Shown here one piece after another: positions 3,892-56,936 of a stretch of 64,000 nucleotides of DNA (position 1 is the first letter of the stretch; every line of letters begins with the position of its first letter). Source of the stretch: a bacterium (GTDB lineage: Bacteria; Auribacterota; Auribacteria; Auribacterales; Auribacteraceae); contig JAHDNF010000004.1 of assembly GCA_018435605.1 (NCBI GenBank), positions 184,542-248,541 of the forward strand, read 5' to 3'. The notes under the pieces are model-generated. The model saw only the letters and a list, made by a program, of their open reading frames with translations, was not told the DNA's origin and ran no database searches. The position numbers and the translations under genes are program-made.

Positions 3892-3941
3892 AAGATACCA
3901 TACTAATACATACCCATGTAATCCTACTTCTGCTTGCAATA

Positions 3942-3977: not shown

Positions 3978-3997
3978 ACTAATATGGCCTTTTATTA

Positions 3998-4489: not shown

Positions 4490-4604
4490 GATATCTTACT
4501 CCTTTTGGTTGATATGCATATTTTGATATTATTTACTACATGCCGCTAATCACTCTTTATTTTTTCAATAAATCACCTCCTTTAATTTGCGTTAGCTACT
4601 AAAT

Positions 4605-4620
4605 CGTAATCATTACTACT
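4605..4620. promoter_or_regulatory. Fur-family-box-like palindrome (CGTAATCATTACTA) in the upstream region of the PTPS-like gene
   Basis: 7-1-7 inverted repeat sharing the 13-nt core GTAATCATTACTA with the box at 5087-5101. Resembles the B. subtilis Fur/PerR 7-1-7 box architecture. Confidence 0.4.
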
Positions 4621-4635
4621 AAATAGGCAAAAAAA

Positions 4636-5794: not shown

Positions 5795-5795
5795 T

Positions 5796-8912: not shown

Positions 8913-8938
8913 TCCTGATTAACATAGGAGATGAAATT

Positions 8939-13486: not shown

Positions 13487-13577
13487 TATTTTGATCTTTT
13501 AAATCAAAAATTGAATCTTAACTATAATATATTTCATAAATATCTCTCATCAACCTACAACTGGAAAGGTCTGCACA

Positions 13578-15530: not shown

Positions 15531-15541
15531 CGGAGTTTGAT

Positions 15542-18500: not shown

Positions 18501-19426
18501 GAGAACGGTATCCGATACGCCTTAGGTACATGCGTGAATTGCGCGATTCTATTGAATCACTGGAACGAATCCTTGTGCCCGCGCCGGACGGCGCTCAGAT
18601 ACCGCTAATCCAACTTGCAGATATACAATATACACAAGGTCCACAGATGATAAAAAGTGAGGATACGTTTCTTATAGGATACGTAACCTTTGATAAAAAA
18701 GATCAATTCGCCGAGGTCGACGTAGTCCGGCAGGCACAGGAATACCTTCAGAAAAAAATACAGACGGGCGAGTTTGTTGTTCCTCCAGGGGTAAGTTATG
18801 TTTTTGCAGGAAGCTATGAGAATCAAGTGCGCTCGGAGCGGAAACTCCGAGTACTTGTGCCTGTTGCTCTGCTGATGATATTCATTATTTTATATTTGCA
18901 ATTCGGATCGCTTATAACCAGCTCTCTAGTTTTTAGCGGCATATTCGTTGCATGGGCAGGCGGTTTTATCGTGTTATGGCTGTACAGCCAACCGTGGTTT
19001 ATGGATGTATCTTTGTTCGGCATCAACTTACGTGAATTATTTCAGGTTCATCAGATCAATTTAAGCGTCGCGGTTTGGGTGGGGTTTCTGGCATTGTTCG
19101 GCATTGCATCCGACGACGGAGTTGTAATGGCGACATATCTTACGGAATCGTTTCGATCTAAACAGACCTCATCAGTACGGCAAATACGCGACGCCGCTAT
19201 CGAAGCAGGTAACCGGCGCGTCAGGCCATGCCTTATGACTACTGCAACAACCATTCTTGCGCTACTTCCTGTGCTGACATCTCGCGGACGAGGATCGGAT
19301 ATTATGGTGCCGATGGCTATACCTGTATTCGGCGGGATGCTATTTGAACTGATAACCATGTTTGTCGTACCGGTACTGTACTGCGCGTGGCAGGAACGCC
19401 GGTTCAAGACTATCAAATCTTCCTGA
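15542..19426 (+). CDS. cusA: Heavy-metal efflux RND pump (CusA/CzcA family), unusually long (~1294 aa) with extra hydrophobic segments and a ~140-aa periplasmic insertion
   Basis: Conserved HME-RND blocks (VPLTEFDM start region, FGFSMIYVIFEE, GIAIAIGTMVDMGIVICENI, ASDDGVVMATYL). ACGGAG RBS before the ATG at 15542. The ORF-track start at 15482 overlaps cusB and was rejected. Confidence 0.85.
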   Translation: MTEKNNAQSASIIDGLIKFCLEKKVIVFLVTLLFIAWGILVAPFDWHIPGIQRDPVPVDAIPDIGENQQIVFTQWPGRSPQDIEDQITYPLTVNLLGIPSIKTIRSYSMFGFSMIYVIFEESAGFYWSRSRILEKLNSLPTSVLPDNVTPMLGPDATALGQVFWYTLEGQDKDGNPAGGWELQELRTIQDWYVRYALSAAEGVSEVASVGGFVKEYQIDIDPDAMRVYDVTLDHLIRAVKNANLDVGARTIEVNNVEYVIRGVGFVKNIADLENSVVAVRDNIPVYLKNVAHVTLGPALRRGVLDKEGAEAVGGVVVARYGANPLETIRNVKKRIEEISPGLPAKTLADGTQSKVSIVPFYDRTGLIYETLGTLNTALILQIIVTVLVILVMLMHLKSSIMISGLLPLAVLMCFIAMKLFGVDANIVALSGIAIAIGTMVDMGIVICENIIQHLKAEPDEDSKQVIFRASSEVAGAVLTAIATTIIGFLPVFALEAAEGKLFKPLAFTKIFALFASLIVAICIIPPVAHVILAKRKKSILLSTTVYILLLTAGGHVFLSYSRLIGAVVIAVTAYHLLLKFLPDRWIPSAKRFSPFVMPIAVALLLTDYWLPLGPAAGFIWNLFFILGIVGGLLGIFYLFHKFYSDMLKWCLDHKTLFLSIPILIMLVASNIWMGFDTIFGWIPDSVKRTPVISALWHAFPGLGKEFMPPLDEGSFLFMPTTMPHASIGEVYDVLRKQDMAMYTIPEIDTVVGKLGRAETPLDPAPISMIETIIHYKPEFIVDKSGRRLTFKYESNKNDLFRDENGVALLAPDGEPYIVRGKFTRSSDGKLIPDPSGIPFRLWRPALDPSLNQDREYWKGINSPSDIWDTIVQTVDIPGTTSAPKLQPISARIVMLQSGMRAPMGVKVKGPDLESIEKVGIEIEKFLKEVPSVNPPTVNADRIIGKPYLEINIDRNAIARYGIQIAAVQQVIEVAIGGKPLTASVEGRERYPIRLRYMRELRDSIESLERILVPAPDGAQIPLIQLADIQYTQGPQMIKSEDTFLIGYVTFDKKDQFAEVDVVRQAQEYLQKKIQTGEFVVPPGVSYVFAGSYENQVRSERKLRVLVPVALLMIFIILYLQFGSLITSSLVFSGIFVAWAGGFIVLWLYSQPWFMDVSLFGINLRELFQVHQINLSVAVWVGFLALFGIASDDGVVMATYLTESFRSKQTSSVRQIRDAAIEAGNRRVRPCLMTTATTILALLPVLTSRGRGSDIMVPMAIPVFGGMLFELITMFVVPVLYCAWQERRFKTIKSS

Positions 19427-21976: not shown

Positions 21977-22621
21977 ATGAACGACCTGAAAATCAGATGC
22001 ACTCCGGAACCAACGCTACGCCGTCTGCCATTGTATTTGGGGTTTTTAAAAGGAATCTCGGATAGAGGCAGAAATATTTCGTGTACCCAGATAGCAAATG
22101 AATTCGGTTTTGATCCGACACAGGTGCGTAAAGATATCGCTCAGACAGGTATTGTAGGAACGGCTAGAATAGGTTATGACACCAAAGACCTGATTTTGCA
22201 AATAGAAACCTTTCTCGGCTGGAACAAAAAACATGAAGCGTTTCTTGCCGGAGCTGGAAACCTCGGAACCGCACTGCTCAAATACAATCTTTTCAAAGAT
22301 GAATACGGACTGGATATCGTTGCGGTTTTTGAGAACGACAAAGCAAAACAAGGAACTCATATTGCGGGCAGGAAGGTACTTCCGGTTGACAAGATTACCG
22401 ATCTGGCTCGCAGGATGCATGTCCCTATCGGAGTTATCGCGATACCGCCCGAAGCGGCACAGAGTGTCGCCGACCGCATGATAGAAGGCGGCATCATCGG
22501 AATATGGAACTTTTGTCCTGTTGCCCTGAAAGTCCCTGAAGGAATAATTGTCGAGAACGCAAGGCTGTCAACCAGTCTTGCCGTATTGACAGGAAAATTG
22601 CATAACTTGCTTAACGCTTAA
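21977..22621 (+). CDS. rex: Redox-sensing transcriptional repressor Rex
   Basis: LRRLPLYLGFL winged-helix region and the Rossmann NADH-binding GAGNLGTAL motif, as in B. subtilis and Thermoanaerobacter Rex. Confidence 0.85.
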   Translation: MNDLKIRCTPEPTLRRLPLYLGFLKGISDRGRNISCTQIANEFGFDPTQVRKDIAQTGIVGTARIGYDTKDLILQIETFLGWNKKHEAFLAGAGNLGTALLKYNLFKDEYGLDIVAVFENDKAKQGTHIAGRKVLPVDKITDLARRMHVPIGVIAIPPEAAQSVADRMIEGGIIGIWNFCPVALKVPEGIIVENARLSTSLAVLTGKLHNLLNA

Positions 22622-22639
22622 AAATAAGGAGGATCTCTC

Positions 22640-23134
22640 ATGCCGCTGAGGAAATTCGAGAAAGTATGCGAAATAATTAACACGTATAACAAAGACAAAT
22701 CAAAACTTATTCCCATCTTGCAGGATGTGCAAAGGGAATACAGATACCTGCCGGAAGAAATTATGGCGTACATCGCCACTTCGCTGGATATACCGCCTGC
22801 AAAGGTATTTGGGGTAGCGTCGTTTTACGCCCATTTTGCTTTGGAGCCGAGAGGCAAACATATTATAAGGTTGTGTTGCGGAACCGCCTGTCATGTTAAA
22901 GGTTCGCTAGGACTGCTCGAAGCGTTGCGAAAACGCCTGAACCTTACCGCCGAAAAACACACTACGGACGATATGCTGTTCACCATCGAAACCGTTTCAT
23001 GTCTTGGGGCGTGCGGTTTGGCGCCGGTCATGGTTATAAATGAAGATGTATACGGACAAGTCACACCGGTTATGGCGGTAAACTTAGTGGAAAAAATTAT
23101 GATAGAGGAGAACGGCAATGAAACAGGCGCTTAA
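22640..23134 (+). CDS. hydC: HydC (NuoE-like [2Fe-2S] subunit) of trimeric bifurcating-type [FeFe]-hydrogenase
   Basis: CCGTACHVKGS ... CLGACGLAPV NuoE-family cysteine motifs. AAGGAGG RBS. Confidence 0.85.
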   Translation: MPLRKFEKVCEIINTYNKDKSKLIPILQDVQREYRYLPEEIMAYIATSLDIPPAKVFGVASFYAHFALEPRGKHIIRLCCGTACHVKGSLGLLEALRKRLNLTAEKHTTDDMLFTIETVSCLGACGLAPVMVINEDVYGQVTPVMAVNLVEKIMIEENGNETGA

Positions 23135-25022
23135 TAATATGTTCGACGATATTTACAAACCGCTTGACGAACCGTGCGCGGGTAAAATTGTAATCTGTAC
23201 CGGCACCGGTTGTGTTGCTAGCGGTTCTCTCAAAGTATTGCAGGCGTTTACTGAAGAGATAAGAAAAGCAGGGTTTGACGTCGCTCAAACCTTGCCGGAA
23301 GCAAAAGAATCAACCCGCCCCGATTCAACAGTCAGATTGTCCAAGAGCGGATGTCAGGGGTTTTGTCAGATGGGGCCGCTGGTAACCGTGCTTCCAGAAA
23401 ATATTCTTTATACAAAAGTAAAACCTGAAGACGTGGCGGAAATTGTAACGGAAACACTCTTGAACAAACGGGTAATAGAACGACTGCTCTATAAAGACCC
23501 GGTAACCAAAGAACCGTGTCAAGGACAAAATGAGATTGTTTTCTATAAACGCCAGTCCCGATTCGTGTTGAAAATGTGCGGCGAACTTGACCCGGAAAGT
23601 ATAGACGAATATATTGAACGCGGAGGCTATGACGCCGCCAAAAAAGCCTATTCCGATATGACGCCCGAACAGATTTGCAAAATGATTCTCGAATCAGGGC
23701 TTCGCGGCAGAGGCGGAGGCGGGTTCCCGACCGGACGAAAATGGGAGCTGACCCGTATTCAACCCGGCGATAAGAAGTATGTTATATGCAACGGCGACGA
23801 AGGCGATCCCGGAGCATTCATGGACCGCAGTGTCATGGAAGGAAATCCACACAGCGTGATCGAAGGAATCATGATAGCCGCCCGAGCTGTCGGAGCCGAC
23901 GAGGCGTATATATACGTAAGGATGGAATACCCGCTGGCGGTAAAACGTCTTCGCAAAGCTGTCGAAGCCGCAGAATCCAAGGGTGTTTTAGGTAAAAACG
24001 TTTTAGGATCAGGCAGACAACTTATATGCCACGTAATGGAAGGCGCCGGAGCTTTTGTCTGCGGAGAAGAAACCGCGCTCATATCGTCTATCGAAGGCAA
24101 ACGAGGTATGCCGTCTCCAAAACCGCCGTTTCCCGCCCAAAAGGGTCTGAACGGCAAACCGACTGTCATAAATAACGTGGAAACACTGGCTACAATACCG
24201 TTGATCGTAAATCTCGGCGTCGAAAAATTCCGGAAAATCGGCAACGAAAAGTCGCCCGGAACCAAAACTTTTGCCTTAAGCGGCCACGTGGCCAACACAG
24301 GATTGATCGAGGTGCCCTTAGGCATAACATTGCGGGAAATTATCTATGATATCGGCGGCGGAGTAACCGATAAACACGGCACTATAACCAACGACGGTTT
24401 CAAGATAGTCCAGATCGGCGGCCCTTCCGGCGGGTGTCTGACAGAACAGCACCTTGAACTGTCCCTCGATTTCGATTCGCTCAGGGAAATCGGAGCTATG
24501 ATCGGTTCCGGCGGACTGGTTTTAATGAACAAAAACACTTGTATGGTGAGCGTTGCGCATTACTTCATGCAGTTTACCCAGAATGAATCGTGCGGAAAAT
24601 GCGTGCTGTGCAGAGAAGGTACAAAGCAGATGTTGTACCTGCTTGAAGACATTATGAACGGTCAGGCAACTGCCCAGACATTGGAATTGCTAGAACAACT
24701 CGCCAGAGTCGTACAGAAAGGATCATTGTGCGGATTGGGTAAAACCGCGCCTAACCCTGTATTGTCGACATTGCGTTATTTCAGGGACGAATACGAAGCG
24801 CATGTGTTCGGCAAACGATGTCCGGCAGGCCAGTGTAAAGCTCTGCTTGTACCTGAAATCGATCCTGAAAAATGTAAAGGATGTACGCTATGCGCCAGAA
24901 AATGCCCTGTTGAAGCCATTACCGGCGAACGCGGCAAACCGCATACTATCGATCCTGAAAAATGTATAAAATGCGGCGCATGCGCGGCCGCGTGTAAATT
25001 CTTAGCTGTAACGGGGGTGTAA
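23118..25022 (+). CDS. hydB: HydB (NuoF-like FMN/NADH subunit with N-terminal 2Fe-2S and C-terminal 2x[4Fe-4S] ferredoxin domain)
   Basis: ICTGTGCVASGS, GLRGRGGGGF, ESCGKCVLCREG, CKGCTLCARKCP, CIKCGACAAACK. Overlaps hydC by 17 nt. Confidence 0.85.
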   Translation: MKQALNNMFDDIYKPLDEPCAGKIVICTGTGCVASGSLKVLQAFTEEIRKAGFDVAQTLPEAKESTRPDSTVRLSKSGCQGFCQMGPLVTVLPENILYTKVKPEDVAEIVTETLLNKRVIERLLYKDPVTKEPCQGQNEIVFYKRQSRFVLKMCGELDPESIDEYIERGGYDAAKKAYSDMTPEQICKMILESGLRGRGGGGFPTGRKWELTRIQPGDKKYVICNGDEGDPGAFMDRSVMEGNPHSVIEGIMIAARAVGADEAYIYVRMEYPLAVKRLRKAVEAAESKGVLGKNVLGSGRQLICHVMEGAGAFVCGEETALISSIEGKRGMPSPKPPFPAQKGLNGKPTVINNVETLATIPLIVNLGVEKFRKIGNEKSPGTKTFALSGHVANTGLIEVPLGITLREIIYDIGGGVTDKHGTITNDGFKIVQIGGPSGGCLTEQHLELSLDFDSLREIGAMIGSGGLVLMNKNTCMVSVAHYFMQFTQNESCGKCVLCREGTKQMLYLLEDIMNGQATAQTLELLEQLARVVQKGSLCGLGKTAPNPVLSTLRYFRDEYEAHVFGKRCPAGQCKALLVPEIDPEKCKGCTLCARKCPVEAITGERGKPHTIDPEKCIKCGACAAACKFLAVTGV

Positions 25023-25023
25023 C

Positions 25024-27033
25024 ATGAACAAAAAAGCCTTTATATATGTGGATGGAATTAAAGCTCCTATCAACGGTGAACGGAACCTGCTCGAAGTTAT
25101 AAGAAAAGCGAACATAGATATACCGACGTTCTGTTACCATTCCGAATTGAGCGTTTACGGCGCATGCAGAATGTGCATGGTCGATGTGGAAGGGCAGGGA
25201 TTGATGGCATCGTGTTCCGTTGCCCCTCAACCGGATATGAAAGTCAAAACCAATACGGCGGAGATACGGGAACTGCGTAAAATAGCGGTGGAACTCCTGC
25301 TTGCCAACCACGAGAAAAGTTGCCCGACCTGTAAACGAAGCGCTACTTGTAAACTGCAGGATTTAGGCAGAAAACTAGGTATTGACAAAGTTCGCTTTAA
25401 ACCGATCAACAAACAACAACCGCTCGAAGACGCATCCCAAGTACTGGTTCGCGACCCTAACAAATGTATACTATGCGGTGACTGTGTCCGCATGTGCGCC
25501 GAGGTTCAGGGAATTGGCGCAATTGATTTTGCCTATAGGGGACACGACGTGGCGGTATTACCGGCATTCGGCAAAAGTCTTGATAAAGTGGAATGTGTGT
25601 TCTGCGGACAGTGCGCTCGCGTATGCCCGACCGGAGCTTTGACCGCAAAGTCACACGTCCAAGAAGTCTGGAAAGCGCTCGACGATAAAAATAAAAAAGT
25701 GGTAGTTCAAATTGCGCCGGCAGTACGTGTAGCAATAGGCGAAATGTTCGGTAAAGAACCGGGAACCGTCAGTACCGGACAGATAGTCTCAGCATTAAAA
25801 ATACTCGGTTTTGACAGGGTCTACGATACGTGTTTTGCCGCAGACCTTACCGTTATCGAGGAAGGTAGCGAATTCATACGGCGTGTAACGCAAGACGGCG
25901 CTCTGCCTCAGTTTACATCGTGTTGCCCGGGATGGGTGAAATTTGTCGAACAATATTATCCGGAGTATCTTGATAATTTGTCCACATGCCGCTCTCCCCA
26001 ACAGATGTTCGGCTCGCTGGCTAAAAAAATATTGCCTGACGATTTGAATGTCGCGCCGAAAGATTTGGTTGTGGTATCTATCATGCCGTGTACAGCCAAA
26101 AAATTCGAAGCGGCAAGACCGGAATTTCTACGGGACGAAATACCTGACGTGGATTATGTCTTAACCACACAGGAACTGGGACAAATGATCGAATCTAGCG
26201 GCATCAATTTCGTCAATCTGCAACCGGAATCGCTCGATTTACCGTTAGGATTCAAAACCGGCGCAGGGGTCATTTTCGGCAACACCGGAGGAGTCAGTGA
26301 AGCAGTCCTGCGGTTTTTGAATGAAAAACTTACAGGCAACACACAAGATAACTTCGAGTTTACTGAGGTACGTGGAACAGAGGGAATCCGTGAAGCCCAA
26401 GTTACTTTCGACGGCAAAACATACAGTCTGGCAGTCGTGCACGGACTGGGCAACGCTCGTAAACTGATAGAAAATATAAAAAACGGATCATGCCGCTATG
26501 ACCTTATCGAAGTCATGTCTTGCCCGGGCGGTTGTATAGGCGGGGCAGGCCAGCCGATTTCCTTCGATTCCGATACCAGAGAAAAACGTACAAAGGCTCT
26601 GTATGAAGCGGATAAAATGCTTCAGCTACATAAATCGCAGGAAAATCCATATATTAAAAAATGTTACGATACACATTTGGGCGAAGTCGGCGGCGCTGTA
26701 GCCCATCATCTTTTGCATACCCATTACAAGAGCAGAAAACGCATACACGACGCTGACCTGTCGCTCATGGCGTCCAAAGAAGCCCAACAACTGGAAATCA
26801 GAGTCTGCGTAGGAACCAGCTGTTATCTGCGCGGTTCACAGGATTTGTTACACGCGCTACTTTGCGATATCCATCACAGCGATCTAAAAGACAAGGTGGA
26901 CGTCAAGGCTACATTCTGCTTTGAAAAATGCTCGCAGGGGCCGGTTGTGCGAATCGGCGACAAACTGGTTACTTCAGCTACATTAGAAAAAGTCAAAGAG
27001 GAAATCGAATCGCAGTTGCGTAAACGACAATAA
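25024..27033 (+). CDS. hydA: HydA catalytic [FeFe]-hydrogenase with a fused C-terminal NuoE-like thioredoxin-fold [2Fe-2S] domain (Thermotoga HydA-like architecture)
   Basis: L1 FTSCCPGW, L2 MPCTAKKFE, L3 EVMSCPGGCIGGAGQP. C-terminal ~100 aa with CVGTSCYLRGS ... CFEKCSQGP. Confidence 0.9.
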   Translation: MNKKAFIYVDGIKAPINGERNLLEVIRKANIDIPTFCYHSELSVYGACRMCMVDVEGQGLMASCSVAPQPDMKVKTNTAEIRELRKIAVELLLANHEKSCPTCKRSATCKLQDLGRKLGIDKVRFKPINKQQPLEDASQVLVRDPNKCILCGDCVRMCAEVQGIGAIDFAYRGHDVAVLPAFGKSLDKVECVFCGQCARVCPTGALTAKSHVQEVWKALDDKNKKVVVQIAPAVRVAIGEMFGKEPGTVSTGQIVSALKILGFDRVYDTCFAADLTVIEEGSEFIRRVTQDGALPQFTSCCPGWVKFVEQYYPEYLDNLSTCRSPQQMFGSLAKKILPDDLNVAPKDLVVVSIMPCTAKKFEAARPEFLRDEIPDVDYVLTTQELGQMIESSGINFVNLQPESLDLPLGFKTGAGVIFGNTGGVSEAVLRFLNEKLTGNTQDNFEFTEVRGTEGIREAQVTFDGKTYSLAVVHGLGNARKLIENIKNGSCRYDLIEVMSCPGGCIGGAGQPISFDSDTREKRTKALYEADKMLQLHKSQENPYIKKCYDTHLGEVGGAVAHHLLHTHYKSRKRIHDADLSLMASKEAQQLEIRVCVGTSCYLRGSQDLLHALLCDIHHSDLKDKVDVKATFCFEKCSQGPVVRIGDKLVTSATLEKVKEEIESQLRKRQ

Positions 27034-27047
27034 CCGGAGGCATACCG

Positions 27048-28778
27048 ATGAATAACAGCCAGCCCAATCAGATCGTATATACCAACAACGCCCGGTGCAG
27101 AGATTGTTACCGGTGTATACGGGTATGTCCGGTCAAGGCAATTCAGATAAAAAACGGCCAGGCTTTCGTTGACCCGCAGAGGTGTATTGTATGCGGAACA
27201 TGCATCAGGGAATGCCCGCAAGGCGCTAAGACTTATAGGCACGACATAGAACAAGCCGCCACACTGGCGGCGCAACGCACTGTCGCAGTAAGCATAGCGC
27301 CGTCTTATGCCGCTGTTTTTCCCGACTGGCAACGCAAAAGGCTGGCTTCCGCTTTGAGAAAGCTGGGGTTTGATTATATTGCCGAAACGGCGATAGGCGC
27401 GTACCTGTCCGCGAAAAAAACAGTAGAATACACCTCAGCCAAGTGCGATATGCCGCATATTTGCACAGCTTGTCCTGCGGTGGTCAATTACGTCGAAAAA
27501 TATAACGACAATTACATTAATCTGCTTGTTCCGGCTGTATCGCCCATGGTCGCTCACGCTAAATTTTTAAAAGAAAAATACGGGAAAAATACAGCAGTAG
27601 TTTTTATAGGGCCGTGCGTGGCAAAAAAAGCCGAAGCGCAACGCGACGAGTATTCATCGCTAATCGATTGCGTATTAACCTTTGAGGAACTGTTTATATG
27701 GTTTGAACAGGCGGGCATCAATCTTAAAACATGCGAAGAAAGCGATTTCGACGACTATCCTCCCGCTGAGGCGCGATATTATTCTATAGAAGGAGGATGG
27801 CTGAAAACCGCCGGTTGCGGCAGTGACCGCTTTGACTCCATGTACCTGTGCGTAAGCGGATTTGAGTCGGTAGAAGAATCACTGAAAACCGTTGCCGAAC
27901 TGGAAAAACCGTGTATAGTCGAACCGCTGTTCTGCCCGCACGGATGCATCAACGGACCGGGAATTCATACTCAAGGCAACCTGTTTACCCGGCGCACAGC
28001 AATTATAGAACACGCCGGAGAAAATAAACCGGAGCGTATAAATAAAACTCCGGAAACTCAAGCCGATTTGACAACATCGTTTATAAAACGGTCTTCGGAT
28101 ATTCTCAAAAATGTTTCCCAAGATAAAGTCAGGGAAGTACTTGAAAAGACCGGTAAACTAAACGAGGCCGATCAACTCAACTGCGGCGCATGCGGATATC
28201 CGACATGCCGACAGCAGGCTATAGCCGTTGTGCAGGGCATGGCTGAAATAGATATGTGTATACCTTTCATGCGCCGCCTTGCCGAACAACGGTCAGACCG
28301 GATAATAGAAACCAGCCCGAACGGCATGGTCATTGTAGACGAGGACTTGCGCATCCTTACCATGAATCCGGCATTCAGGAAAATGTTCCTGTGCTCGGAA
28401 AATATTTTCGGCAAAAATATTTCACGGCTCATGGACCCTGAACATTTCATAAAAGTTATCTCAGGCAAAGAAGAAACAGTTACCGCCGTGGTATATCATC
28501 AACGATACGGCCTTATTTGCCATCAGGTGTTTTATATGCTCAAAGACGAACGCCAGATTGTGGGCATCTTTCTTGACATCACCAAAAGCCATACCGATCA
28601 TAAGCGCCTCGAAGAACTTAAAGCAAAAACCATTTTGCAGGCTCGGGAACTGTATGAACATCAAATCGGAATGGCAAGCGAATTTGCCAGATTTCTCGGC
28701 GAGTATACAGCCAAAGGGGAAAAACTGATCGATAACCTCATGCAGTTGAACGATAACCCGCAAGAGGGCGTAGATTGA
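27048..28778 (+). CDS. hydS: Sensory-type [FeFe]-hydrogenase (HydS/HfsB-like, group C): 2x[4Fe-4S] N-term, modified H-cluster domain, Cx2Cx4Cx16C cluster, C-terminal PAS domain
   Basis: CRDCYRCIRVCP and CIVCGTCIRECP. L1 is altered to CTACPAV (canonical TSCCPxW). L2 GPCVAKKAE. L3 EPLFCPHGCINGPG. Also CGACGYPTC-x16-C, and a PAS-like C-terminus (IIETSPNGMVIVDEDLRILTMNPAFRKMF). Confidence 0.75.
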   Translation: MNNSQPNQIVYTNNARCRDCYRCIRVCPVKAIQIKNGQAFVDPQRCIVCGTCIRECPQGAKTYRHDIEQAATLAAQRTVAVSIAPSYAAVFPDWQRKRLASALRKLGFDYIAETAIGAYLSAKKTVEYTSAKCDMPHICTACPAVVNYVEKYNDNYINLLVPAVSPMVAHAKFLKEKYGKNTAVVFIGPCVAKKAEAQRDEYSSLIDCVLTFEELFIWFEQAGINLKTCEESDFDDYPPAEARYYSIEGGWLKTAGCGSDRFDSMYLCVSGFESVEESLKTVAELEKPCIVEPLFCPHGCINGPGIHTQGNLFTRRTAIIEHAGENKPERINKTPETQADLTTSFIKRSSDILKNVSQDKVREVLEKTGKLNEADQLNCGACGYPTCRQQAIAVVQGMAEIDMCIPFMRRLAEQRSDRIIETSPNGMVIVDEDLRILTMNPAFRKMFLCSENIFGKNISRLMDPEHFIKVISGKEETVTAVVYHQRYGLICHQVFYMLKDERQIVGIFLDITKSHTDHKRLEELKAKTILQARELYEHQIGMASEFARFLGEYTAKGEKLIDNLMQLNDNPQEGVD

Positions 28779-29932
28779 TCATGATGAAAAACTCTTTTGT
28801 CGATATCTACTATAAACAATCTTCAAAAAGACCCGGCGACCCGTGCGGCGATGTGGTTGTATATAAGCGGGACGCCTACCACACCACAATTCTGCTGGTC
28901 GACGGCATCGGTTCGGGTATCAAAGCTCATATTGCCGCAACAATGAACTCGGCTCGTATCATGCAAATGCTTGCGGACGGGTTTTCTGTTCGCGACGTTT
29001 TTTCCCATATGGTAAAAACCATGAACGAATGGCGCAACTACGACAAACCGTTTTCAGCATTCACCCTTACACGCATTATGCACGACGGCACAGCAACAAT
29101 GCTCTCATACGAGGCTCCGGTACCGTTACTGCTAGGCGCTCGCGAAGCGTATGTGCTTCCCGCACAAACGTTGACTATCGGTGAAGCATTGGTCAGCGAA
29201 ATAGATTATCACCTAAGGCACGGCGAGGGCGTCGTACTGGTTTCAGACGGTATAACCCAAGCAGGAATAGGCAACGGACTTCCCAGAGGCTGGACTATCG
29301 AAGGCGTCAACGGATTTGTCAACCGCCTTGTTTCCCGCTCAACACCAACGGAAGATATCCCAGATCAAATTATTCAAGAGGCTTTTGTGATTGACGGATC
29401 TACATTCAACGACGATTGTACTGTAATAGCCGCCCCGTTTCGACACGGGCATGTGGTTACCATATTAACCGGACCTCCCGAATCACCCGCCGACGATGAA
29501 AAATCAATCGCAATGTTTCTTGAAAACAAAGGCACTAAAATCGTATGCGGGTCAACAACCGCTAATATTGTCGCAAGACACCTCAATACCGAGGTGCGGG
29601 TAGAGCATAACCGCAGGAATACAGGGACACCTCCGCAATATTTCATTGACGGGATCGATCTGGTAACAGAAGGAGCGATTACCCTTAATCAACTGCATAA
29701 TATCCTCGACGAAGATTTGCTCAACACAGCCGAACGAAGCGCTGTTTTCGATCTGTGGCAACAAATAATGGAATCCGACCGGATTCAGTTCATGGTAGGA
29801 AAAAAAATCAACTCTGCCAGCGACGATATAATATGGCGCAAACAAGGTATTTTACCGCGTATCCGCATTGTCAACCTGCTGGCAAAAAAACTCGAATCCA
29901 TGGGCAAACTGGTTACCATAACCTACGTATAA
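28775..29932 (+). CDS. PP2C-family (SpoIIE/RsbU-like) serine phosphatase with an uncharacterised C-terminal domain, translationally coupled to hydS
   Basis: GDVVVY...TTILLVDGIGSGIKAHIAA and VVLVSDGITQAG match PPM/SpoIIE metal-binding motifs. ATGA overlap with the hydS stop. Confidence 0.6.
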   Translation: MIMMKNSFVDIYYKQSSKRPGDPCGDVVVYKRDAYHTTILLVDGIGSGIKAHIAATMNSARIMQMLADGFSVRDVFSHMVKTMNEWRNYDKPFSAFTLTRIMHDGTATMLSYEAPVPLLLGAREAYVLPAQTLTIGEALVSEIDYHLRHGEGVVLVSDGITQAGIGNGLPRGWTIEGVNGFVNRLVSRSTPTEDIPDQIIQEAFVIDGSTFNDDCTVIAAPFRHGHVVTILTGPPESPADDEKSIAMFLENKGTKIVCGSTTANIVARHLNTEVRVEHNRRNTGTPPQYFIDGIDLVTEGAITLNQLHNILDEDLLNTAERSAVFDLWQQIMESDRIQFMVGKKINSASDDIIWRKQGILPRIRIVNLLAKKLESMGKLVTITYV

Positions 29933-30184
29933 TACTTGCTGTAGCCTAAATGAATTAAGCCTGCATCGAACTGCTAACTTCCAATCCTTTTATCTTTTCA
30001 GAATTTTATCAAACAATAACTGGTACGGATTTTGTATAATCAAGGTATTTGAATTTATTGTTTTACGGGGAAAGACGGTTTGTGTAATTTTTACACACTA
30101 TGACGACGATTTATTTCATAAATACAACACTAAAGAGACATCTGTTACCAACGGATAATCCGAATCATGACAGGAGGAACACCC

Positions 30185-30796
30185 ATGAGCGAAAGACCGC
30201 CATTTTTTAAACGCAAATACATTGTGAACAAAGAATTACAGTTCCACATATCTATTGTCATGATTATGGAAATTCTTCTCATGGCAATTGTTATGAGTAC
30301 AATTATCGTATGCCTGAACAATTACTATCAAGAGATATTTCAGTATATCGCAGGTACTACCGAGTTGCAGACTCCATTGCGGGAAATAAATAAACCGATA
30401 TGGCTGTTTATGCTGGGTAGTGTAAGTTTTAGTGTGTTTGTTTTTGCTCTGGTAGGTATTTTTTTGTCTCACAAAATCGCCGGCCCTTTATACCGCATGA
30501 AACGTATAATGATTGATATCGGTAAAGGAAAATTGCCCCGTGAAATACGGTTTCGCAAAGGCGACCATATGCATGACATGGCTGACGCCCTAAATGAAAT
30601 GGTGCTTGGATTGCAAAACCGCGACAAAACGACTCTTGAGGCTATAAATAAAATAGAACGCATTGTTAACGAGTTAGCCAAAGCACTTGCCGATTCAAAT
30701 CAGACTAAAAAACGCGATGAGTCCATTCAGCAACATCTTGGAGAATTGAATAGACTGATTGAAACGGAAAAAATCAAACACCCGGAAATAGCGTAA
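30185..30796 (+). CDS. Small membrane protein with two TM helices and a HAMP domain, no output domain
   Basis: Two hydrophobic segments, then IAGPLYRMKRIMIDIGKGKLPREIRFRKGDHMHDMADALNEMVLGL (HAMP pattern). AGGAGG RBS before the ATG at 30185. Confidence 0.5.
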   Translation: MSERPPFFKRKYIVNKELQFHISIVMIMEILLMAIVMSTIIVCLNNYYQEIFQYIAGTTELQTPLREINKPIWLFMLGSVSFSVFVFALVGIFLSHKIAGPLYRMKRIMIDIGKGKLPREIRFRKGDHMHDMADALNEMVLGLQNRDKTTLEAINKIERIVNELAKALADSNQTKKRDESIQQHLGELNRLIETEKIKHPEIA

Positions 30797-30807
30797 GGAG
30801 TTGATCC

Positions 30808-32502
30808 GTGAAAATTTCACCGCATCGTGAACTGAAGTCTAACAATATCGGATTCACTTTGCTTGAGCTGGTTGTAGTGGTAGCTGTATTAATGGTTGTT
30901 CTCTCAATTATAATCGCCGCTTCGCGTGAACTCAAGTATCATTCCAATCTTGCGTTTTGTATGAATAATCTGCGGCAGATTTCCCTTGCAATGGTAACCT
31001 ATCATAACGATCATAACGACTATCCGTACGGCTTGCCTTACGATACTTTGAGCAACCAATTGAGCAGATATTTATCCAGCGACAAGATATTTGTCTGCCC
31101 GCAGGATGATTACGAATCCGTAGACAGTTACAGCCAATTTTATTGTTATCCCGGTCAAGATGCTGATGGTAGCAAATATGTTGTGGGATGCCCTCGCCAT
31201 AAACGCGGCAGTCTGTGCGCCGCGGTTTTGGGTTTTCAGACGGCTTACATGACAAAATCGGCTAAAGTGACGGTGGATAATGTGGCTATTCGCACAGGTT
31301 GCGCTACTTCTGGCACAATGAATCTGGAAGACGGAACTACGATCAGTTCGAACGACATAGAGATGCACCTCGTGCAGTCGTTTCGCATGGCGGACGGATC
31401 TCTGTATACTATAATTCGCGTTCCTGAAGGAGAAACAGGTTCTTTGACTGTCAACGCTACCGAAGGAACGCAACTGGAGATTGTTACTCCTTCGCTTATA
31501 GCGGCTATTCGCGGAACTGCGTTTACAGTCGAGGTACAGTATGATAACGATTTACCTCTATCCAGTATATATGTTCATGACGGAATGGTTGAAGTACAAC
31601 CCATAAACGGTTTGCGCAGGGTTGATAACGAATTCGTAGCGGCAGGCAAACGGGGCATGCACCTACGCCCCGGTGAATCGGTACAGATATATACTGAACC
31701 TCAGAAAATAAATATATCTGCGCTCAATACCAGAGTTGAAGCTTTGCAGGCTAAAATCCGCCGCGGTCTTGCGAGCGGAAAAGATATGAACCCTGAAATA
31801 GGTATGATCAAATGGCTAATGTCTTTCAGCAGTACTCCGGTATCTTTGGATTTTCCATCCGCAAAACCGGTCTATGATTTTTCCGGATCATATAATTCGG
31901 TAGCCGAAGCGCGGCAAGGGGCAATGAATGCGGTTCAAGGCATAAACAACGAAATGGATAATACAAGAACGGCTAAAAACTTCATTAAAAATATTGCCAA
32001 CGAAGCGGAAAAAACATTAGGCGCTATTGTCAGGGATGCTGACACGTCGCAGAAACAATTAAATAAAGTGGTGGATGATTTATCCAAAAATAAACTCAGC
32101 AAAGCTATGGAATCCGCTCAAGCCGCTCAGGATGCCGCTATCGCCGCAGAACAGAAGGCTATTTTGATCAATCAACAGCTTCAGGCCGCTCAGCAAGCTA
32201 AGATAAATGCTGATAATGCCGTGGCCAGAGCGCAAGAATTAGCCGGCCATGCGGAAACCGCCGCTAACCAAGCCGCGGTGCTCGCTCAAGGCAACCCAAC
32301 TGAAACCGGAAACGCACAACAGGCTAGAGTCTTAGCGGAAAAAGCTGTGAATGAAGTCCAAAAAGCTATACAGGAAGCGAATCAGTCGGCTATAGATTTA
32401 TATAACATAATGCAGGCGCTACAAACTGCCAATGAAACCGCGGGATCCGCACGGTCATCGGCAAATCAGGCAAATCAACTGATCAGTCAGCACGGCAATT
32501 GA
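30808..32502 (+). CDS. Prepilin-type N-terminal cleavage/methylation-domain protein (DUF1559-like N-terminal region) with a long C-terminal Ala/Gln-rich coiled coil
   Basis: Class-III signal N-IGFTLLELVVVVAVLMVV (G-1, F+1, E+5). CMNNLRQISLAMVTYHNDH resembles the CxNNLKQIGLA..YH block of PVC-type DUF1559/H-X9-DG proteins. C-terminus has QAAQDAAIAAEQKAILINQQLQAAQQAK... repeats. GTG start with AAGGAG RBS. Confidence 0.5.
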   Translation: MKISPHRELKSNNIGFTLLELVVVVAVLMVVLSIIIAASRELKYHSNLAFCMNNLRQISLAMVTYHNDHNDYPYGLPYDTLSNQLSRYLSSDKIFVCPQDDYESVDSYSQFYCYPGQDADGSKYVVGCPRHKRGSLCAAVLGFQTAYMTKSAKVTVDNVAIRTGCATSGTMNLEDGTTISSNDIEMHLVQSFRMADGSLYTIIRVPEGETGSLTVNATEGTQLEIVTPSLIAAIRGTAFTVEVQYDNDLPLSSIYVHDGMVEVQPINGLRRVDNEFVAAGKRGMHLRPGESVQIYTEPQKINISALNTRVEALQAKIRRGLASGKDMNPEIGMIKWLMSFSSTPVSLDFPSAKPVYDFSGSYNSVAEARQGAMNAVQGINNEMDNTRTAKNFIKNIANEAEKTLGAIVRDADTSQKQLNKVVDDLSKNKLSKAMESAQAAQDAAIAAEQKAILINQQLQAAQQAKINADNAVARAQELAGHAETAANQAAVLAQGNPTETGNAQQARVLAEKAVNEVQKAIQEANQSAIDLYNIMQALQTANETAGSARSSANQANQLISQHGN

Positions 32503-34372: not shown

Positions 34373-36199
34373 CTAATTGAGAGTAAGGAACTTATTTTTC
34401 GCCTTAATCTGACGGGCGATATCGGAAATATTTTTGCGGATATACGTAACTTTATGAGCAGGCCCGTTTTCGTTTTCTGTCATCAAACCGTGCTCGACTA
34501 TTTCAACAAACTCATTTATTTTCGATTCCTGTAATGGATACGGATGCTCCGCCCAGAATTTAAGGTGTTCCATCTCGTACCTGCCCATCTTTTCAGAACC
34601 GTCAGCCGGACACAAAGGACGGGGGTTAACAGCCAACTGATAACCTTTAAGCGCCATAATCAGCGGCTGGTAATTGTGTTCCACATACAAACGGGCAAAC
34701 AGGTATTCCACCACAGTGGTTTTGTGCTGTCGTTCCCTATCCTGACAATGTATATTTTCAAGACTGAACCTCACGAAACCGTATTCATCTACGATTTCAC
34801 GGTTAAAAATGCGCTTTTCTCGCAAAATCTGATGCGTATCATACCCCAAATCACCGCCAAGCAACAATAAACAGATTAAATGATCTATATCGTTCTGGCG
34901 CGTAAACTGTACCTTCTCAGCCGCCTGAATGGATATATGCAAGCTGTGCGGACGAATACCGGTAAACCTAGTCGCTTCATTTATCAAGCGGTCTAAAATC
35001 CATGGATCAAGAGTTACCGGCTTCGACAAATCCTCGAAAATTTTACTGCGTCCGAACGCATACTCCAAAAAACCGAATGAACGTTCTTTGAGAGGATCAG
35101 GAAAATGATGGTCGTCTATGTGTCCGCCAATTTTCCACATCCTGCCGGTAAAATCGAAATCATGAAAGTAATGAAAATAGTTGTATACAGAATCAAACGG
35201 GCGCTCTTTTTCAACGGCAAACCGTCCGCCGGTACTGAATTCCACCTCCGCACCCAGAGGAATCACACCGGGATGGCGGTTTTTCTTAACCCACTCGACT
35301 TTCCGCTCTATCGATTCTTTATCATATATGGTATCCGCTATTTTTATTGCTTTATGCGCATAATCGACGTATTCCCATGAATCATTGAACGTATCCGCCT
35401 TATATTGTTTCATCAGCTGTGCAACCTCGTCCGAGCGCTCATTTACAACTGTAAGAGCGATCATTATCGAGATGGTATATGCGTAAAACTCGTGTTCCAC
35501 CTTAACCCGTCCGGTAAAATCGAATCTGATACGATCTTCTATCTGATTGAATATCATGTGTTTAACCGCAAACGATATATAGTTGTCGGCATACGCCAGT
35601 ATCGCAGGGTTGTTGCGGATAGGTTTAAGGGTAGGCAACTCCTTCTTTGCAAGATTTTTTGACAAATATTCCAGCGAAAGATTGCGGTGTTCTATGTGAG
35701 AACGCACCAGATCCTCGAAATCGGATCCAAGTAGCTCTTTCTTTATCCGCTGATATTCCGACGCCTTAAGAACATCCTGATCTTTTAAAGAATCCTGCAT
35801 CATCAGCTCGTTGACTTTGCTTGCGACATATTTTTCAATACGGTCTTCTATGTCGGTACCGGGTAAAAAATATTTTTTAATGGATTTAACATTGCCGATA
35901 TACACTTCGCATTCAACAGGACGAGTATTGCCTTCGGTATAAACCTTAACCGTGCGCCGCCAGTACAAATCGCCTTCAGCTTCGTACTTATCCATTTTAA
36001 GCATTGACTCGGCATCGACGTCATACAAAATATAACCGTCGACAAATTCGCCGAAATACGGAATAATAAACGGAAAGCAGGCTCTGGAAGTTACTTTACG
36101 ATAGTTTTTAAGGACAGCTTTTTCACTGCGGAACGTGTGGGACGTGACTATTTTTTGATTTTGTTCGCTGATTAACGTACCATATACAAATAAATTCAT
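34373..36199 (-). CDS. Fusion protein: N-terminal gamma-glutamyl cyclotransferase-like (GGCT/AIG2) domain plus ~480-aa uncharacterised C-terminal domain
   Basis: MNLFVYGTLISEQ... YGTL motif and ~110-aa GGCT-like region. The remainder has no motif I recognise. Confidence 0.45.
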   Translation of the reverse strand: MNLFVYGTLISEQNQKIVTSHTFRSEKAVLKNYRKVTSRACFPFIIPYFGEFVDGYILYDVDAESMLKMDKYEAEGDLYWRRTVKVYTEGNTRPVECEVYIGNVKSIKKYFLPGTDIEDRIEKYVASKVNELMMQDSLKDQDVLKASEYQRIKKELLGSDFEDLVRSHIEHRNLSLEYLSKNLAKKELPTLKPIRNNPAILAYADNYISFAVKHMIFNQIEDRIRFDFTGRVKVEHEFYAYTISIMIALTVVNERSDEVAQLMKQYKADTFNDSWEYVDYAHKAIKIADTIYDKESIERKVEWVKKNRHPGVIPLGAEVEFSTGGRFAVEKERPFDSVYNYFHYFHDFDFTGRMWKIGGHIDDHHFPDPLKERSFGFLEYAFGRSKIFEDLSKPVTLDPWILDRLINEATRFTGIRPHSLHISIQAAEKVQFTRQNDIDHLICLLLLGGDLGYDTHQILREKRIFNREIVDEYGFVRFSLENIHCQDRERQHKTTVVEYLFARLYVEHNYQPLIMALKGYQLAVNPRPLCPADGSEKMGRYEMEHLKFWAEHPYPLQESKINEFVEIVEHGLMTENENGPAHKVTYIRKNISDIARQIKAKNKFLTLN

Positions 36200-40839: not shown

Positions 40840-42774
40840 TCACTTCACTTCTTCATAGTCTGCGTCAATATAATCGTCGCTGTGACCTGCAGGCTCGTTT
40901 TCAGTTTTCTGAGATGTTTGCTCTGCTCCGGCGGTATGGGTTTGATACGCTCCCGCAGACGCTCCCTGTTGCGTGCCTGCCCTCTTGTAAAGTTTAGTAG
41001 ATACTTCCTGCCATGTTTGCTGAAGCGCGTTCATAGCAGGTTCGATCGCCGATGAATTACGCTCTTTGACCGCTTTTTCGAGGTCGTTTTTTAGTGATTC
41101 AAGTTTAGATCGGTCGGCAGGATCGATCTTATCACCGTTTTCTCTGAGCAGTTTATCCGTCTCGAAAGTCAATTGTTCCGCGCGGTTGATTTTATCCACG
41201 GTTTCTCGTTGCTGTTTATCTTCATGAGCGTACTGCTCTGCTTCTTTAACCATCCGGTCGATATCTGTTTTACTAAGTCCGCTTGACGCTTCGATACGGA
41301 TGGATTGTTCTTTTCCTGTGGCTTTATCTTTGGCGGATACATGCAGTATACCGTTTGCGTCAATATCAAACGTGACTTCGATCTGCGGTATTCCACGCGG
41401 CGCGGGCGGGATATCGGTCAACTGAAACCGCCCGATAGATTTGTTATACGCGGCCATTTCTCTTTCGCCTTGCAAAACATGTATATCCACAGCGGTCTGA
41501 TTATCCGCGGCAGTCGAGAATACTTCCGATTTTTTTGTCGGTATCGTTGTGTTTCGCTCAATTAGTTTAGTAAACACTCCGCCCTTGGTTTCCACACCAA
41601 GCGACAGCGGTGTAACGTCGAGCAGTAAGACATCTTTGACCGCGCCGGACAACACACCGCCCTGAATACTCGCGCCAATGGCAACAACTTCGTCGGGGTT
41701 GACTCCTTTATGCGGTTCCTTGCCGAACAATTCTTTGACAATCTGCTGAACAGCAGGCATACGTGTCTGTCCGCCGACGAGTATCACTTCGTCAATATCG
41801 CTTGCCGACAATTTGGCGTCCTGCATAGCCTGAATACAAGGCTTCTTTGTACGTTCAAGCAAACCGGATACAAGCTGTTCGAGTTTCGAGCGTGTGAGAG
41901 TAATATTGAGATGTTTCGGGCCGCTGGAATCGGCAGTGACAAACGGCAGATTAATTTCCGTAGACATTGACGAAGACAGCTCGCATTTGGCTTTTTCAGC
42001 GGCTTCTTTGAGTCTCTGTAGCGCCATCTGGTCTTTGCGAAGGTCTATTCCGTTATCCTTCGTAAATTCTTCCGCAAGATAGTTGATTATAGCATCGTCG
42101 AAATTGTCGCCTCCCAGATGCGTATCTCCGTTGGTAGACAATACCTCGAAAACACCCTCTCCCAACTGTAATATGGAAATATCGAAAGTTCCTCCGCCAA
42201 GGTCGAAAACCGCTATTTTCTCGTCATTCTTCTTATCCAAGCCGTACGCCAGAGCGGCGGCAGTCGGTTCGTTAATGATTCGCAACACATCAAGACCGGC
42301 TATCGCGCCCGCTTCTTTTGTCGCCTGCCTCTGTGCGTCGTTGAAATACGCCGGAACGGTAATTACCGCCTGCGTTACTTTGCTACCCAGATAATCTTCG
42401 GCGGTTTGCTTCATTTTCTGCAAAATCATAGCGGATATTTCCTGCGGTGTGTAATGCTTGCCTTCCAGCTCTACGACCGCGTTACCGGCCTTGTCGGCTT
42501 TTACTTTATAGGAAACCGATTTCTCTTCTTCTTTAACTTCCGTATACTTCCTGCCCATAAACCGCTTTATGGACATTATAGTATTGCCGGCGTTGGTTAT
42601 TGCCTGCCGTTTAGCCACAGTTCCCACAAGCCGTTCGCCGTTTTTAGTAACCGCCACGACCGACGGGGTAGTGCGCCCTCCTTCAGCATTGGTTAGCACC
42701 ACAGGTTCTCCGCCTTCCATCACAGATACACATGAGTTGGTAGTACCCAAGTCTATTCCGATTACTTTACCCAT
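40840..42774 (-). CDS. dnaK: Chaperone DnaK (Hsp70), copy 1, not in a grpE/dnaJ operon
   Basis: [30 protein letters not shown] signatures. Confidence 0.9.
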
Positions 42775-56399: not shown

Positions 56400-56936
56400 A
56401 TGAATAGAATCGAATTGGCATGGATGAAAGATAAGGCGGTAATCAGGGTTGTGGGAAAAGGAAGTTTTCTCAACAGCCGCAACTTCAAAGAAGCTGTCAT
56501 TGCATTGCTGGCAAGATCTGATAAAACGATCGTAATCGATTTCGCCGACTGTAGCGGCATGGACAGCACGTTTATCGGAGTTCTAACCGGCATAACGCTA
56601 AGAGAATTGAAAAAAAGCGACAAACAAATGCTACTAGCCAATCTGGGCAAATGCAACAGGGAGTTGCTGGAAACTCTGGGAGTAATCCGGTTTTTCAATG
56701 TGATGAAAAACGACTGTACATTCGATGCCGAATTCAAATCGGTTGCCGATACCCCCGAAGACCCCGACGGAGCCATAGAACAAATAAAACATATCCTCGA
56801 AGCTCACGATAACCTGATCAAAGCCAACGAGGAAAACATCGACCGATTCAAGCTGGTTAAACAAACGCTCGAACAGGAGCTCGCCCAAAAAATAGATGAA
56901 AAAAAACAACGCAACGGCAAGAAAAATCAACAATAA
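56400..56936 (+). CDS. STAS-domain protein (anti-sigma-factor antagonist / SpoIIAA-like) with C-terminal coiled-coil extension
   Basis: VIDFADCSGMDSTFIGVLTGI resembles the SpoIIAA/RsbV phosphorylatable-Ser region. ~100-aa STAS core plus a Lys/Glu-rich tail. Confidence 0.55.
   Translation: MNRIELAWMKDKAVIRVVGKGSFLNSRNFKEAVIALLARSDKTIVIDFADCSGMDSTFIGVLTGITLRELKKSDKQMLLANLGKCNRELLETLGVIRFFNVMKNDCTFDAEFKSVADTPEDPDGAIEQIKHILEAHDNLIKANEENIDRFKLVKQTLEQELAQKIDEKKQRNGKKNQQ

Follow-up and report, generated by a model that had tools for sequence, protein, structure and literature searches.

According to our analysis, positions 30167 to 32502 of the 64,000-nucleotide (nt) stretch of Auribacterota DNA analyzed here, hereafter the window, encode a conserved pair of proteins: a stand-alone protein with two transmembrane (TM) helices and a HAMP domain (gene 1) and, directly downstream, a prepilin-type protein with a FecR-type periplasmic β-sandwich (gene 2). 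The pair is a clade-specific instance of a wider, undescribed adjacency of HAMP-only and prepilin genes, since gene 1 belongs to a very large protein family and the core of gene 2 to a larger family of its own. The locus could be a two-gene operon for two inner-membrane proteins that work as one split trans-membrane relay, a view that we favor only tentatively.

The two genes and their products

A preliminary description, made from the sequence alone, had placed two open reading frames (ORFs) here, 11 nt apart. Both were recovered in the 64-kb window on the plus strand, at 30167 to 30796 (209 aa) and at 30808 to 32502 (564 aa, with a GTG start). As judged from sequence, the true start of gene 1 is probably its second ATG, at 30185, which would give a product of 203 aa, since GGAGGA precedes this codon and conservation among the orthologues begins exactly there, at MSERPPFFKRKYIVNKELQF (MSERPP). 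The Shine-Dalgarno sequence of gene 2, AGGAG, is located 7 nt 5' of the GTG. A pair 99 to 100% identical to this one is recorded in a "Candidatus Auribacterota" metagenome-assembled genome (MAG) under the names "methyl-accepting chemotaxis protein" and "DUF1559 domain-containing protein," the latter borne by a protein 99% identical to gene 2. The features of gene 1, including those predicted with AlphaFold2 (AF2), are the following.

30185 to 30796, plus strand: gene 1, stand-alone 2TM-HAMP protein, 203 aa from ATG 30185, with the longest ORF from 30167 (ORF calling, orthologue conservation, family membership, AF2 model)
30191 to 30241, plus strand: N-terminal cytoplasmic family motif ERPPFFKRKYIVNKELQ, consensus RRxYxVxKxxQ (family alignments)
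30233 to 30328, plus strand: TM helix 1 (hydropathy; AF2 helix 16 to 56)
30395 to 30484, plus strand: TM helix 2 running into the first HAMP helix, AS1 (SHKIAGPLYRM; hydropathy, AF2 helix 59 to 113, invariant SHKIAGPL)
30461 to 30616, plus strand: HAMP domain made of AS1, connector, and second helix AS2 (Pfam aa 93 to 144, family profile, Foldseek match to WalK TM2-HAMP)
30617 to 30778, plus strand: C-terminal cytoplasmic helical hairpin with no recognizable output domain (AF2 helices 130 to 169 and 174 to 198)
30797 to 30807, plus strand: intergenic spacer of 11 nt with the end of the gene 2 Shine-Dalgarno sequence (from the sequence)

Hydropathy places the TM segments at aa 23 to 54 and 77 to 106 in 209-aa numbering, with an extracytoplasmic loop of about 25 aa, and the protein ends about 55 aa past the HAMP domain. 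In the N-terminal motif, Y12, K16, and Q19 are invariant in an alignment of 8 sequences, and Q19 alone in a family alignment of 40 sequences. The two TM helices, the HAMP domain, and the lack of an output domain had all been recognized in the preliminary description, but its "textbook" HAMP was overstated, since gene 1 on its own scores 18.7 to 18.8 bits against Pfam HAMP (PF00672), below the gathering threshold (GA) of 25. Despite this score, the HAMP domain is real, though divergent, because the domain is matched in 32 of the 40 family members at E ≤ 0.01 (best, 8e-12), because a profile of these 40 members finds known HAMP structures, and because the predicted fold agrees. The best solved relative of that profile is the TM and HAMP region of HtrII (E of 1e-7), followed by the HAMP domains of Tsr (2e-7) and then CpxA in the Protein Data Bank. 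The AF2 model, with a predicted local distance difference test (pLDDT) score of 87.5, has TM1 in helix 16 to 56, TM2 and AS1 in helix 59 to 113, a connector at 114 to 129, AS2 in helix 130 to 169, and a last helix at 174 to 198, that is, helix, connector, and helix straight after the TM helix, as expected of HAMP. It superposes on WalK TM2-HAMP with a root mean square deviation of 2.4 Å over 99 residues (Foldseek; the target is an integrative WalK-YycH model), so that the nearest solved relative is WalK TM2-HAMP by fold and HtrII by sequence profile.

No output domain was detected in gene 1 with Pfam or NCBIfam, and its NCBIfam matches, to WalK, CtpM, VanS, and the like, are confined to the TM/HAMP parts of these proteins. 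The name methyl-accepting chemotaxis protein (MCP), given by NCBI and the Joint Genome Institute, was rejected since there is no signaling domain: Pfam and NCBIfam find no MCPsignal domain, and the match to CtpM stops at the TM/HAMP part.

The features of gene 2 are listed below.

30808 to 32502, plus strand: gene 2, modular prepilin-type protein, 564 aa (ORF calling)
30838 to 30912, plus strand: class III (prepilin) signal and N-methylation motif, a leader then G/FTLLE (Pfam N_methyl, aa 11 to 35)
30859 to 31014, plus strand: long pilin-type α1 helix, the N-terminal half of which is the sole TM segment (AF2 helix 18 to 69; hydropathy TM aa 11 to 43)
30958 to 31032, plus strand: DUF1559 N-terminal block (CMNNLRQIS...YHNDH; Pfam PF07596; C51, N53, N54, and Q57 to S59 invariant)
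31033 to 31176, plus strand: Cys/Tyr/Asp-rich head with a low-confidence fold (C97, C128, CPRH; DSYSQFY; invariant columns; pLDDT below 50 at aa 73 to 123)
31177 to 31695, plus strand: FecR/PupR-like β-sandwich
31714 to 31821, plus strand: conserved helical pair (..KI.KG...M..E..L..WL), end of the family core (AF2 helices 303 to 322 and 328 to 338; conservation)
31900 to 32496, plus strand: Ala/Gln/Asn-rich C-terminal module, an antiparallel three-helix bundle, clade specific (AF2 model)

The class III leader reported for gene 2 was borne out: the prepilin motif IGFTLLELVVVV, with a leader of 15 aa and with Gly at −1 and Glu at +5, scores 23.8 bits against Pfam N_methyl (PF07963; GA, 21.2), while TIGR02532 gives 10 bits against a cut-off of 16.3. 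One orthologue has Asp at +5. This is the only GFxxxE motif in the entire window, and the "single copy" of the preliminary description holds at that scale, that of the window and not of the genome. The α1 helix spans 52 residues in the AF2 model, and the block CMNNLRQISLAMVTYHNDH at aa 51 to 69 accounts for a match to Pfam DUF1559 (PF07596) of 24.9 bits (GA, 23.3) that covers only positions 12 to 36 of the 268 in the profile. TIGR04294 (H-X9-DG) had no match at E ≤ 1; the only H-X9-DG-like string is HLVQSFRMADG at aa 187, in which the spacer is 8 residues long and the His is not conserved among the orthologues. With 25 of the 268 profile positions matched, no TIGR04294 match, and no conserved H-X9-DG, membership of gene 2 in the DUF1559/H-X9-DG family was rejected, so that of the DUF1559 likeness proposed earlier the short block after the pilin helix stands and the family assignment does not.

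The region expected to hold the pilin globular head (aa 73 to 123) is modeled at a pLDDT below 50; the invariant Cys residues of the family are C51, C97, and C128. The preliminary description had missed the β-sandwich of about 170 aa at aa 124 to 296, which is FecR/PupR-like in the AF2 model and on which both the Pfam FecR match (PF04773; aa 163 to 244, below GA) and the NCBIfam match to Leptospira Lsa33 (1e-7) fall; gene 2 thus carries a FecR-type periplasmic β-sandwich. The tail (aa 365 to 564; 22% Ala, 12% Gln, and 11% Asn) is Ala/Gln-rich as previously noted, but instead of one long coiled coil the model has three packed helices of about 60 residues (62 to 67 each; pLDDT of about 85 to 97), resembling three-helix bundles.

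Full-length orthologues of gene 2 number only four (46 to 62% identity), and remoter relatives have aa 1 to 340 in common with it, not the tail. A profile of aa 62 to 345 retrieved about 50 clusters of 300- to 450-aa proteins with FecR and DUF1559/N_methyl matches from Auribacterota and Brocadiia MAGs, with FecR-LysM proteins of Burkholderia below them in the ranking. On these profile matches, the gene 2 core is assigned to a prepilin and FecR-domain family. Tandem paralogues are frequent in this family: among the tail-less members, L005 and L010/L011 carry three copies each, and L008 and L096 two. In a Brocadiia MAG (L097:6001-9652), a tail-less prepilin/DUF1559-N/FecR protein is encoded tail-to-tail with a CHASE2-GAF-HD signaling protein, a possible alternative partner of the FecR-type module in Planctomycetota. 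A PADLOC search of both proteins of the pair gave no match, and a defense-system reading was rejected on this result.

Conservation of the pair and HAMP-prepilin adjacency across phyla

A HAMP-only orthologue is encoded directly 5' of every tail-bearing gene 2 orthologue (L001 to L004), and the pair is therefore kept in five of the five tail-bearing loci, including the present one, of a small Auribacterota clade. The flanks differ: Fur, ferritin, and peroxiredoxins surround L001 and L003, and other genes L002 and L004. The L002 HAMP-only orthologue (5380 to 5970) is spread over three frames by two frameshifts, which are probably long-read assembly errors, although it may be a pseudogene. A metagenome scan for further members of the clade gave one distant fragment only. 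The preliminary description had found the arrangement unfamiliar; the pairing is real and conserved in the five loci, and profile searches place neither protein in a well-characterized family, so that this remark stands on that count, although both components belong to larger uncharacterized families.

Upstream of the pair in the window lie the genes for Rex, HydCBA, HydS, and a PP2C phosphatase, and downstream a convergent GlnRS gene. The pair might belong to the adjacent H2-sensing unit (HydS and PP2C, 27048 to 29932) and tie hydrogenase regulation to the envelope, as both are on the same strand and 234 nt separate the pair from the PP2C gene upstream of it, the one located behind HydS. We consider this very improbable, and membership in the HydS/PP2C operon was rejected because the synteny is absent in all orthologous loci, where none of the four pairs is near hydrogenase genes. 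Furthermore, the AT-rich 234-nt gap 5' of gene 1 holds TGTATAAT, an extended −10-like element which suggests a separate promoter, although a consensus scan for promoters and terminators at the locus gave nothing above the shuffled background. The pair is an autonomous two-gene module outside the hydrogenase regulon, with flanking genes that are unrelated between loci while the pair itself is retained.

HAMP domains are usually viewed as in-line couplers within receptors, kinases, and cyclases. When 1.84 billion cluster representatives were searched with a profile, a stand-alone 2TM-HAMP family emerged, uncurated and defined in this analysis, with 10,555 matches at E ≤ 1e-3, of which 1,501 reach E ≤ 1e-10. 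The best 150 matches are nearly all 140 to 250 aa long, and most of them align across most of the profile. The members share a length of about 150 to 240 aa, the RRxYxVxKxxQ N terminus, two TM helices, C-terminal helices, and the motifs SH[KR]IAGPLYR at the TM2/AS1 junction and FRKxDE..LA..FN.M in AS2; HAMP is the sole recurrent Pfam domain across 40 of them. Gene 1 fits these traits and is accordingly assigned to a large uncharacterized family rather than being an oddity. A pattern scan built from the 8-sequence alignment and run on one genome per species confirmed at least 578 stand-alone HAMP loci in Spirochaetia, Planctomycetia, Omnitrophota, Elusimicrobiota, Oligoflexia/Bacteriovoracaceae, Nitrospirota, Thermodesulfobacteriota, Acidobacteriota, and others. 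The cluster names of distant relatives say nothing beyond "methyl-accepting chemotaxis protein." Full-text searches of the literature brought up no article about stand-alone HAMP proteins, nor anything pertinent to the pairing of HAMP with a pseudopilin.

In the 80 best genome loci of this family, ORFs were called and the neighbors clustered. The largest neighbor cluster is a prepilin-type gene, present at +1 or −1 on the same strand in 23 of the 80 loci and encoding 127 to 229 aa, in some cases with a GspG-like "DPWGxxYxY" motif. Pilin-like ORFs amount to 24 of about 150 at ±1 versus 3 of about 280 at ±2/3 (Fisher P = 3e-9, with approximate denominators), and on a neighbor-joining tree the adjacency is scattered over five or more separate subclades, in several phyla. 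Six sampled neighbors all match NCBIfam pilin or pseudopilin N-terminal models, and five of them pass the TIGR02532 cut-off. The prepilin-type genes beside HAMP-only genes are usually orphan. An Elusimicrobiota MAG (L067, JBDRON010000063.1, 11 to 6968) instead has the HAMP-only gene (3956 to 4582) inside a complete type IV pilus (T4P) operon, in the order T2SSE ATPase, T2SSF/PilC, pilin, PilD (overlapping the HAMP start), HAMP-only, PilM, PilN, and PilO.

Two further three-gene arrangements recur around HAMP-only genes. In the subclade of L023, L032, L033, L037, and L040 (about 3500 to 5000 in each), a degenerate pilin-like protein without Glu+5 is encoded first, the HAMP-only protein second, and a 126-aa PilZ protein third, and in that of L034, L063, L069, and L095, the order is HAMP-only protein, GspG-like pilin, and a hybrid histidine kinase of 870 to 950 aa with its own HAMP. 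Wzy_C-TPR proteins are encoded near the HAMP-only genes of Spirochaetia. Large neighbors in L053, L061, L065, and L069, suspected from their size to be GspE/GspF, turned out to be phosphoenolpyruvate carboxykinase, ThiC, aldehyde ferredoxin oxidoreductase, and other unrelated proteins; true T4P machinery was identified in L067 only.

A putative split relay and its alternatives

FecR/PupR folds act as periplasmic signal-receiving modules in cell-surface signaling, and in HtrII, the archetypal 2TM-HAMP unit, the signal arrives from sensory rhodopsin II (SRII) through lateral contacts in the TM region. The two proteins of the pair have complementary topologies, with gene 2 predicted to have no part in the cytoplasm and gene 1 to have next to nothing outside, a TM bundle, and a HAMP domain inside. 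As to topology, physical contact, signaling direction, and output, we infer the following relay. The α1 helix of gene 2 would insert in the membrane, whether or not a prepilin peptidase cleaves the protein, and the rest, consisting of the Cys-containing head, the FecR/PupR-like sandwich, and the three-helix bundle, would be extracytoplasmic, with no cytoplasmic part. Gene 1 would supply the 2TM-HAMP unit and the cytoplasmic hairpin, its periplasmic part being limited to the short loop. The state of the periplasmic module, whether set by a bound ligand, by a bound partner, or by how large its membrane pool is, would be passed laterally within the membrane, helix to helix, to the TM bundle of a HAMP dimer; in response, HAMP would alter the conformation of the C-terminal hairpin, which in turn would act on a putative cytoplasmic partner. 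Binding of a pilin TM helix to a sensor TM helix has been described for PilA and TM1 of PleC, in a study which also cites PilA-PilS (PMC7196804). The conservation of the pair in all five loci and the family-wide adjacency of HAMP-only and prepilin genes also speak for the relay.

In a broader form, which we regard as possible but rather doubtful, stand-alone 2TM-HAMP proteins would be widespread, undescribed pilin-coupled transducers that read the state or pool of a pilin via helix-helix contacts and have lineage-specific outputs, and the pair in Auribacterota would descend from such a system through conversion of its pilin partner into a FecR-like periplasmic sensor. Candidate outputs are the PilZ protein, the hybrid HAMP histidine kinase, and, in Elusimicrobiota, the T4P assembly genes.

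A number of observations weigh against a relay. Besides the sub-GA HAMP score of gene 1, two gene 2 orthologues have Ala at −1, no HAMP neighbor was found beside the tail-less gene 2 relatives in the loci examined, and no third conserved gene or output partner is present beside the pair in the five loci, a number of orthologous pairs insufficient for co-variation analysis. Outside the clade, the closest HAMP relative (P0115; L013 to L015 and L017) has no pilin neighbor, and in 57 of the 80 surveyed loci the neighbors are others, such as PDZ-TPR proteins, SurA_N-like lipoproteins, SLT proteins, and housekeeping proteins; since other subclades have other neighbors and this closest relative lacks a pilin, the HAMP-prepilin link is strong but not universal. 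Finally, the co-occurrence of tail and HAMP may be purely phylogenetic, because the tail is periplasmic whereas the HAMP output is cytoplasmic.

Gene 2 might instead be a modular minor (pseudo)pilin, cleaved by the peptidase and located at the tip of or along a type IV filament, with its modules serving as adhesin or ligand binder, and gene 1 an assembly accessory or regulator, perhaps sensing or chaperoning the pool of unassembled subunits. This is consistent with the canonical class III signal (Gly−1, Glu+5, N_methyl above GA), with the long α1 helix of the model, and with the HAMP-only member within the pilBC-pilin-pilD-pilMNO operon of L067; modular pilins with grafted domains are common, with 264 architectures among over 1,200 proteins (PMC8179133), and some Auribacterota MAGs are reported to encode T4P (PMC9324843). 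However, no Peptidase_A24, T2SSE, or T2SSF was detected in the 64-kb window, which is thus devoid of a prepilin peptidase and of T4P or type II secretion system (T2SS) machinery as well as of a second pilin, and neither T4P/T2SS machinery nor a further pilin was seen in the flanks of the four orthologous loci. The poorly modeled head, the Ala−1 variants, the lack of Glu+5 in the pilin-like neighbors of one HAMP subclade, and a cargo of 550 aa, large for incorporation in a filament, also count against a minor pilin, which we judge rather unlikely.

Alternatively, the genes might only be co-transcribed, gene 2 being an anchored periplasmic or surface protein, as presumed for the DUF1559-type proteins of the Planctomycetes-Verrucomicrobia-Chlamydiae (PVC) group, and gene 1 acting independently, e.g., by modulating HAMP receptors through hetero-oligomerization. 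Each family is indeed widespread without the other, HAMP-only neighborhoods are heterogeneous, and the missing third conserved gene leaves no pathway marked. We nevertheless find this distinctly unlikely in light of the tight coupling (11 nt here) kept in five loci despite full turnover of the flanks, and of the prepilin enrichment beside HAMP-only genes, which recurs in independent subclades (P = 3e-9) and is hard to explain otherwise.

Since the principle of a pilin helix contacting a membrane sensor is already known, we consider the general association of stand-alone HAMP and prepilin genes, which is testable, the most valuable result. Literature searches found no described function for the thousands of 2TM and HAMP-only proteins, and the prepilin adjacency provides a testable idea. 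If the split relay is true, the PilA-PilS/PilA-PleC principle, in which a membrane pilin is the signal, could extend to many phyla, and in the broader form of the idea the pair would be a cell-surface-signaling device that combines a pilin anchor with a HAMP domain acting in trans, in place of an anti-sigma domain. For the biology of the PVC group, the idea provides a first entry point to the function of one branch among the enigmatic DUF1559-like prepilin proteins, in which a pilin helix anchors a FecR-type periplasmic sensor module. If the relay idea is wrong, the locus encodes a lineage-specific envelope protein pair of an uncultured bacterium.

Other features of the window and comparison with known systems

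Several other regions of the window deserve mention. Genes at 21977 to 29932 (plus strand) encode the Rex repressor, a HydC/HydB/HydA-type bifurcating [FeFe] hydrogenase, a HydS-like sensory hydrogenase with PAS, and a SpoIIE/PP2C phosphatase, a set which we take to resemble a putative H2-sensing regulatory arrangement of other anaerobes. A second [FeFe] hydrogenase set at 5264 to 10708 (plus strand) includes a NuoF-like subunit of 1,038 aa fused to Fer4_20 and Pyr_redox_2 (GltD/NfnB-like). The Cus-type heavy-metal efflux operon at 12161 to 19426 (plus strand; OEP, HlyD_D23, ACR_tran) has a membrane-fusion protein with two HMBD motifs and DUF3347, and an unusually long resistance-nodulation-division pump of 1,314 aa. 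A 1,183-aa ORF at 104 to 3655 (plus strand) has no Pfam match at E ≤ 1e-5, and in a 608-aa protein at 34373 to 36199 (minus strand), an N-terminal γ-glutamyl cyclotransferase (GGACT) is the sole recognizable part, with about 500 aa remaining. The two DnaK paralogues are encoded at 40840 to 42774 (minus strand) and 59417 to 61363 (plus strand), one with GrpE/DnaJ and one beside ClpB. Partner-switching parts comprise REC-GAF-SpoIIE, STAS, and GAF-SpoIIE proteins, at 46642 to 48924 (minus strand), 56400 to 56936 (plus strand), and 57057 to 58433 (plus strand). No Rfam matches and no tRNAs were found in the window.

Among known systems, gene 2 resembles the DUF1559/H-X9-DG families of Planctomycetota and Verrucomicrobiota in its prepilin N terminus followed by a CxNNLKQI-type block, the host of the window belonging to Auribacterota, a phylum that is discussed together with the PVC group, and gene 2 relatives being present in Brocadiia; it departs from these families in the short stretch of the profile that it matches and in the missing H-X9-DG. 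Like the modular type IV pilins (Streptococcus sanguinis PilB/PilC, CofB, and GspK), it combines an N-terminal pilin module with grafted C-terminal modules and is of similar size (PMC8179133), but there is no pilus operon around it and its assembly into a filament is putative. The term "FecR" is absent from the main text of that survey. Unlike FecR/PupR regulators, gene 2 begins with a prepilin leader and therefore lacks a cytoplasmic anti-sigma domain. No extracytoplasmic function sigma factor is encoded beside gene 2 and no TonB-dependent receptor in the window, the only sigma factor near the pair being of the group 1/2 sigma-70 type and on the opposite strand.

Gene 1 shares with HtrII of the SRII-HtrII system a minimal extracytoplasmic loop, a separate membrane-embedded partner encoded next door, and a profile match that spans both TM helices and HAMP. 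However, HtrII has a full MCP signaling domain, whereas gene 1 ends after a helical stretch of about 55 aa, and the partner of HtrII is a rhodopsin with seven TM helices, whereas the putative partner of gene 1 is a single-helix pilin-type protein. PilS and PleC differ from gene 1 in being histidine kinases with defined outputs, while gene 1 has no kinase or output domain and no detected homology to either of them. Nonetheless, in the PilA-PilS system of Pseudomonas aeruginosa and the PilA-PleC system of Caulobacter, the hydrophobic N-terminal helix of the pilin binds the TM region of the sensor and reports the membrane pilin pool (PMC7196804), and, since HAMP and prepilin genes adjoin family-wide, coupling of this type is what we propose for the pair described here.

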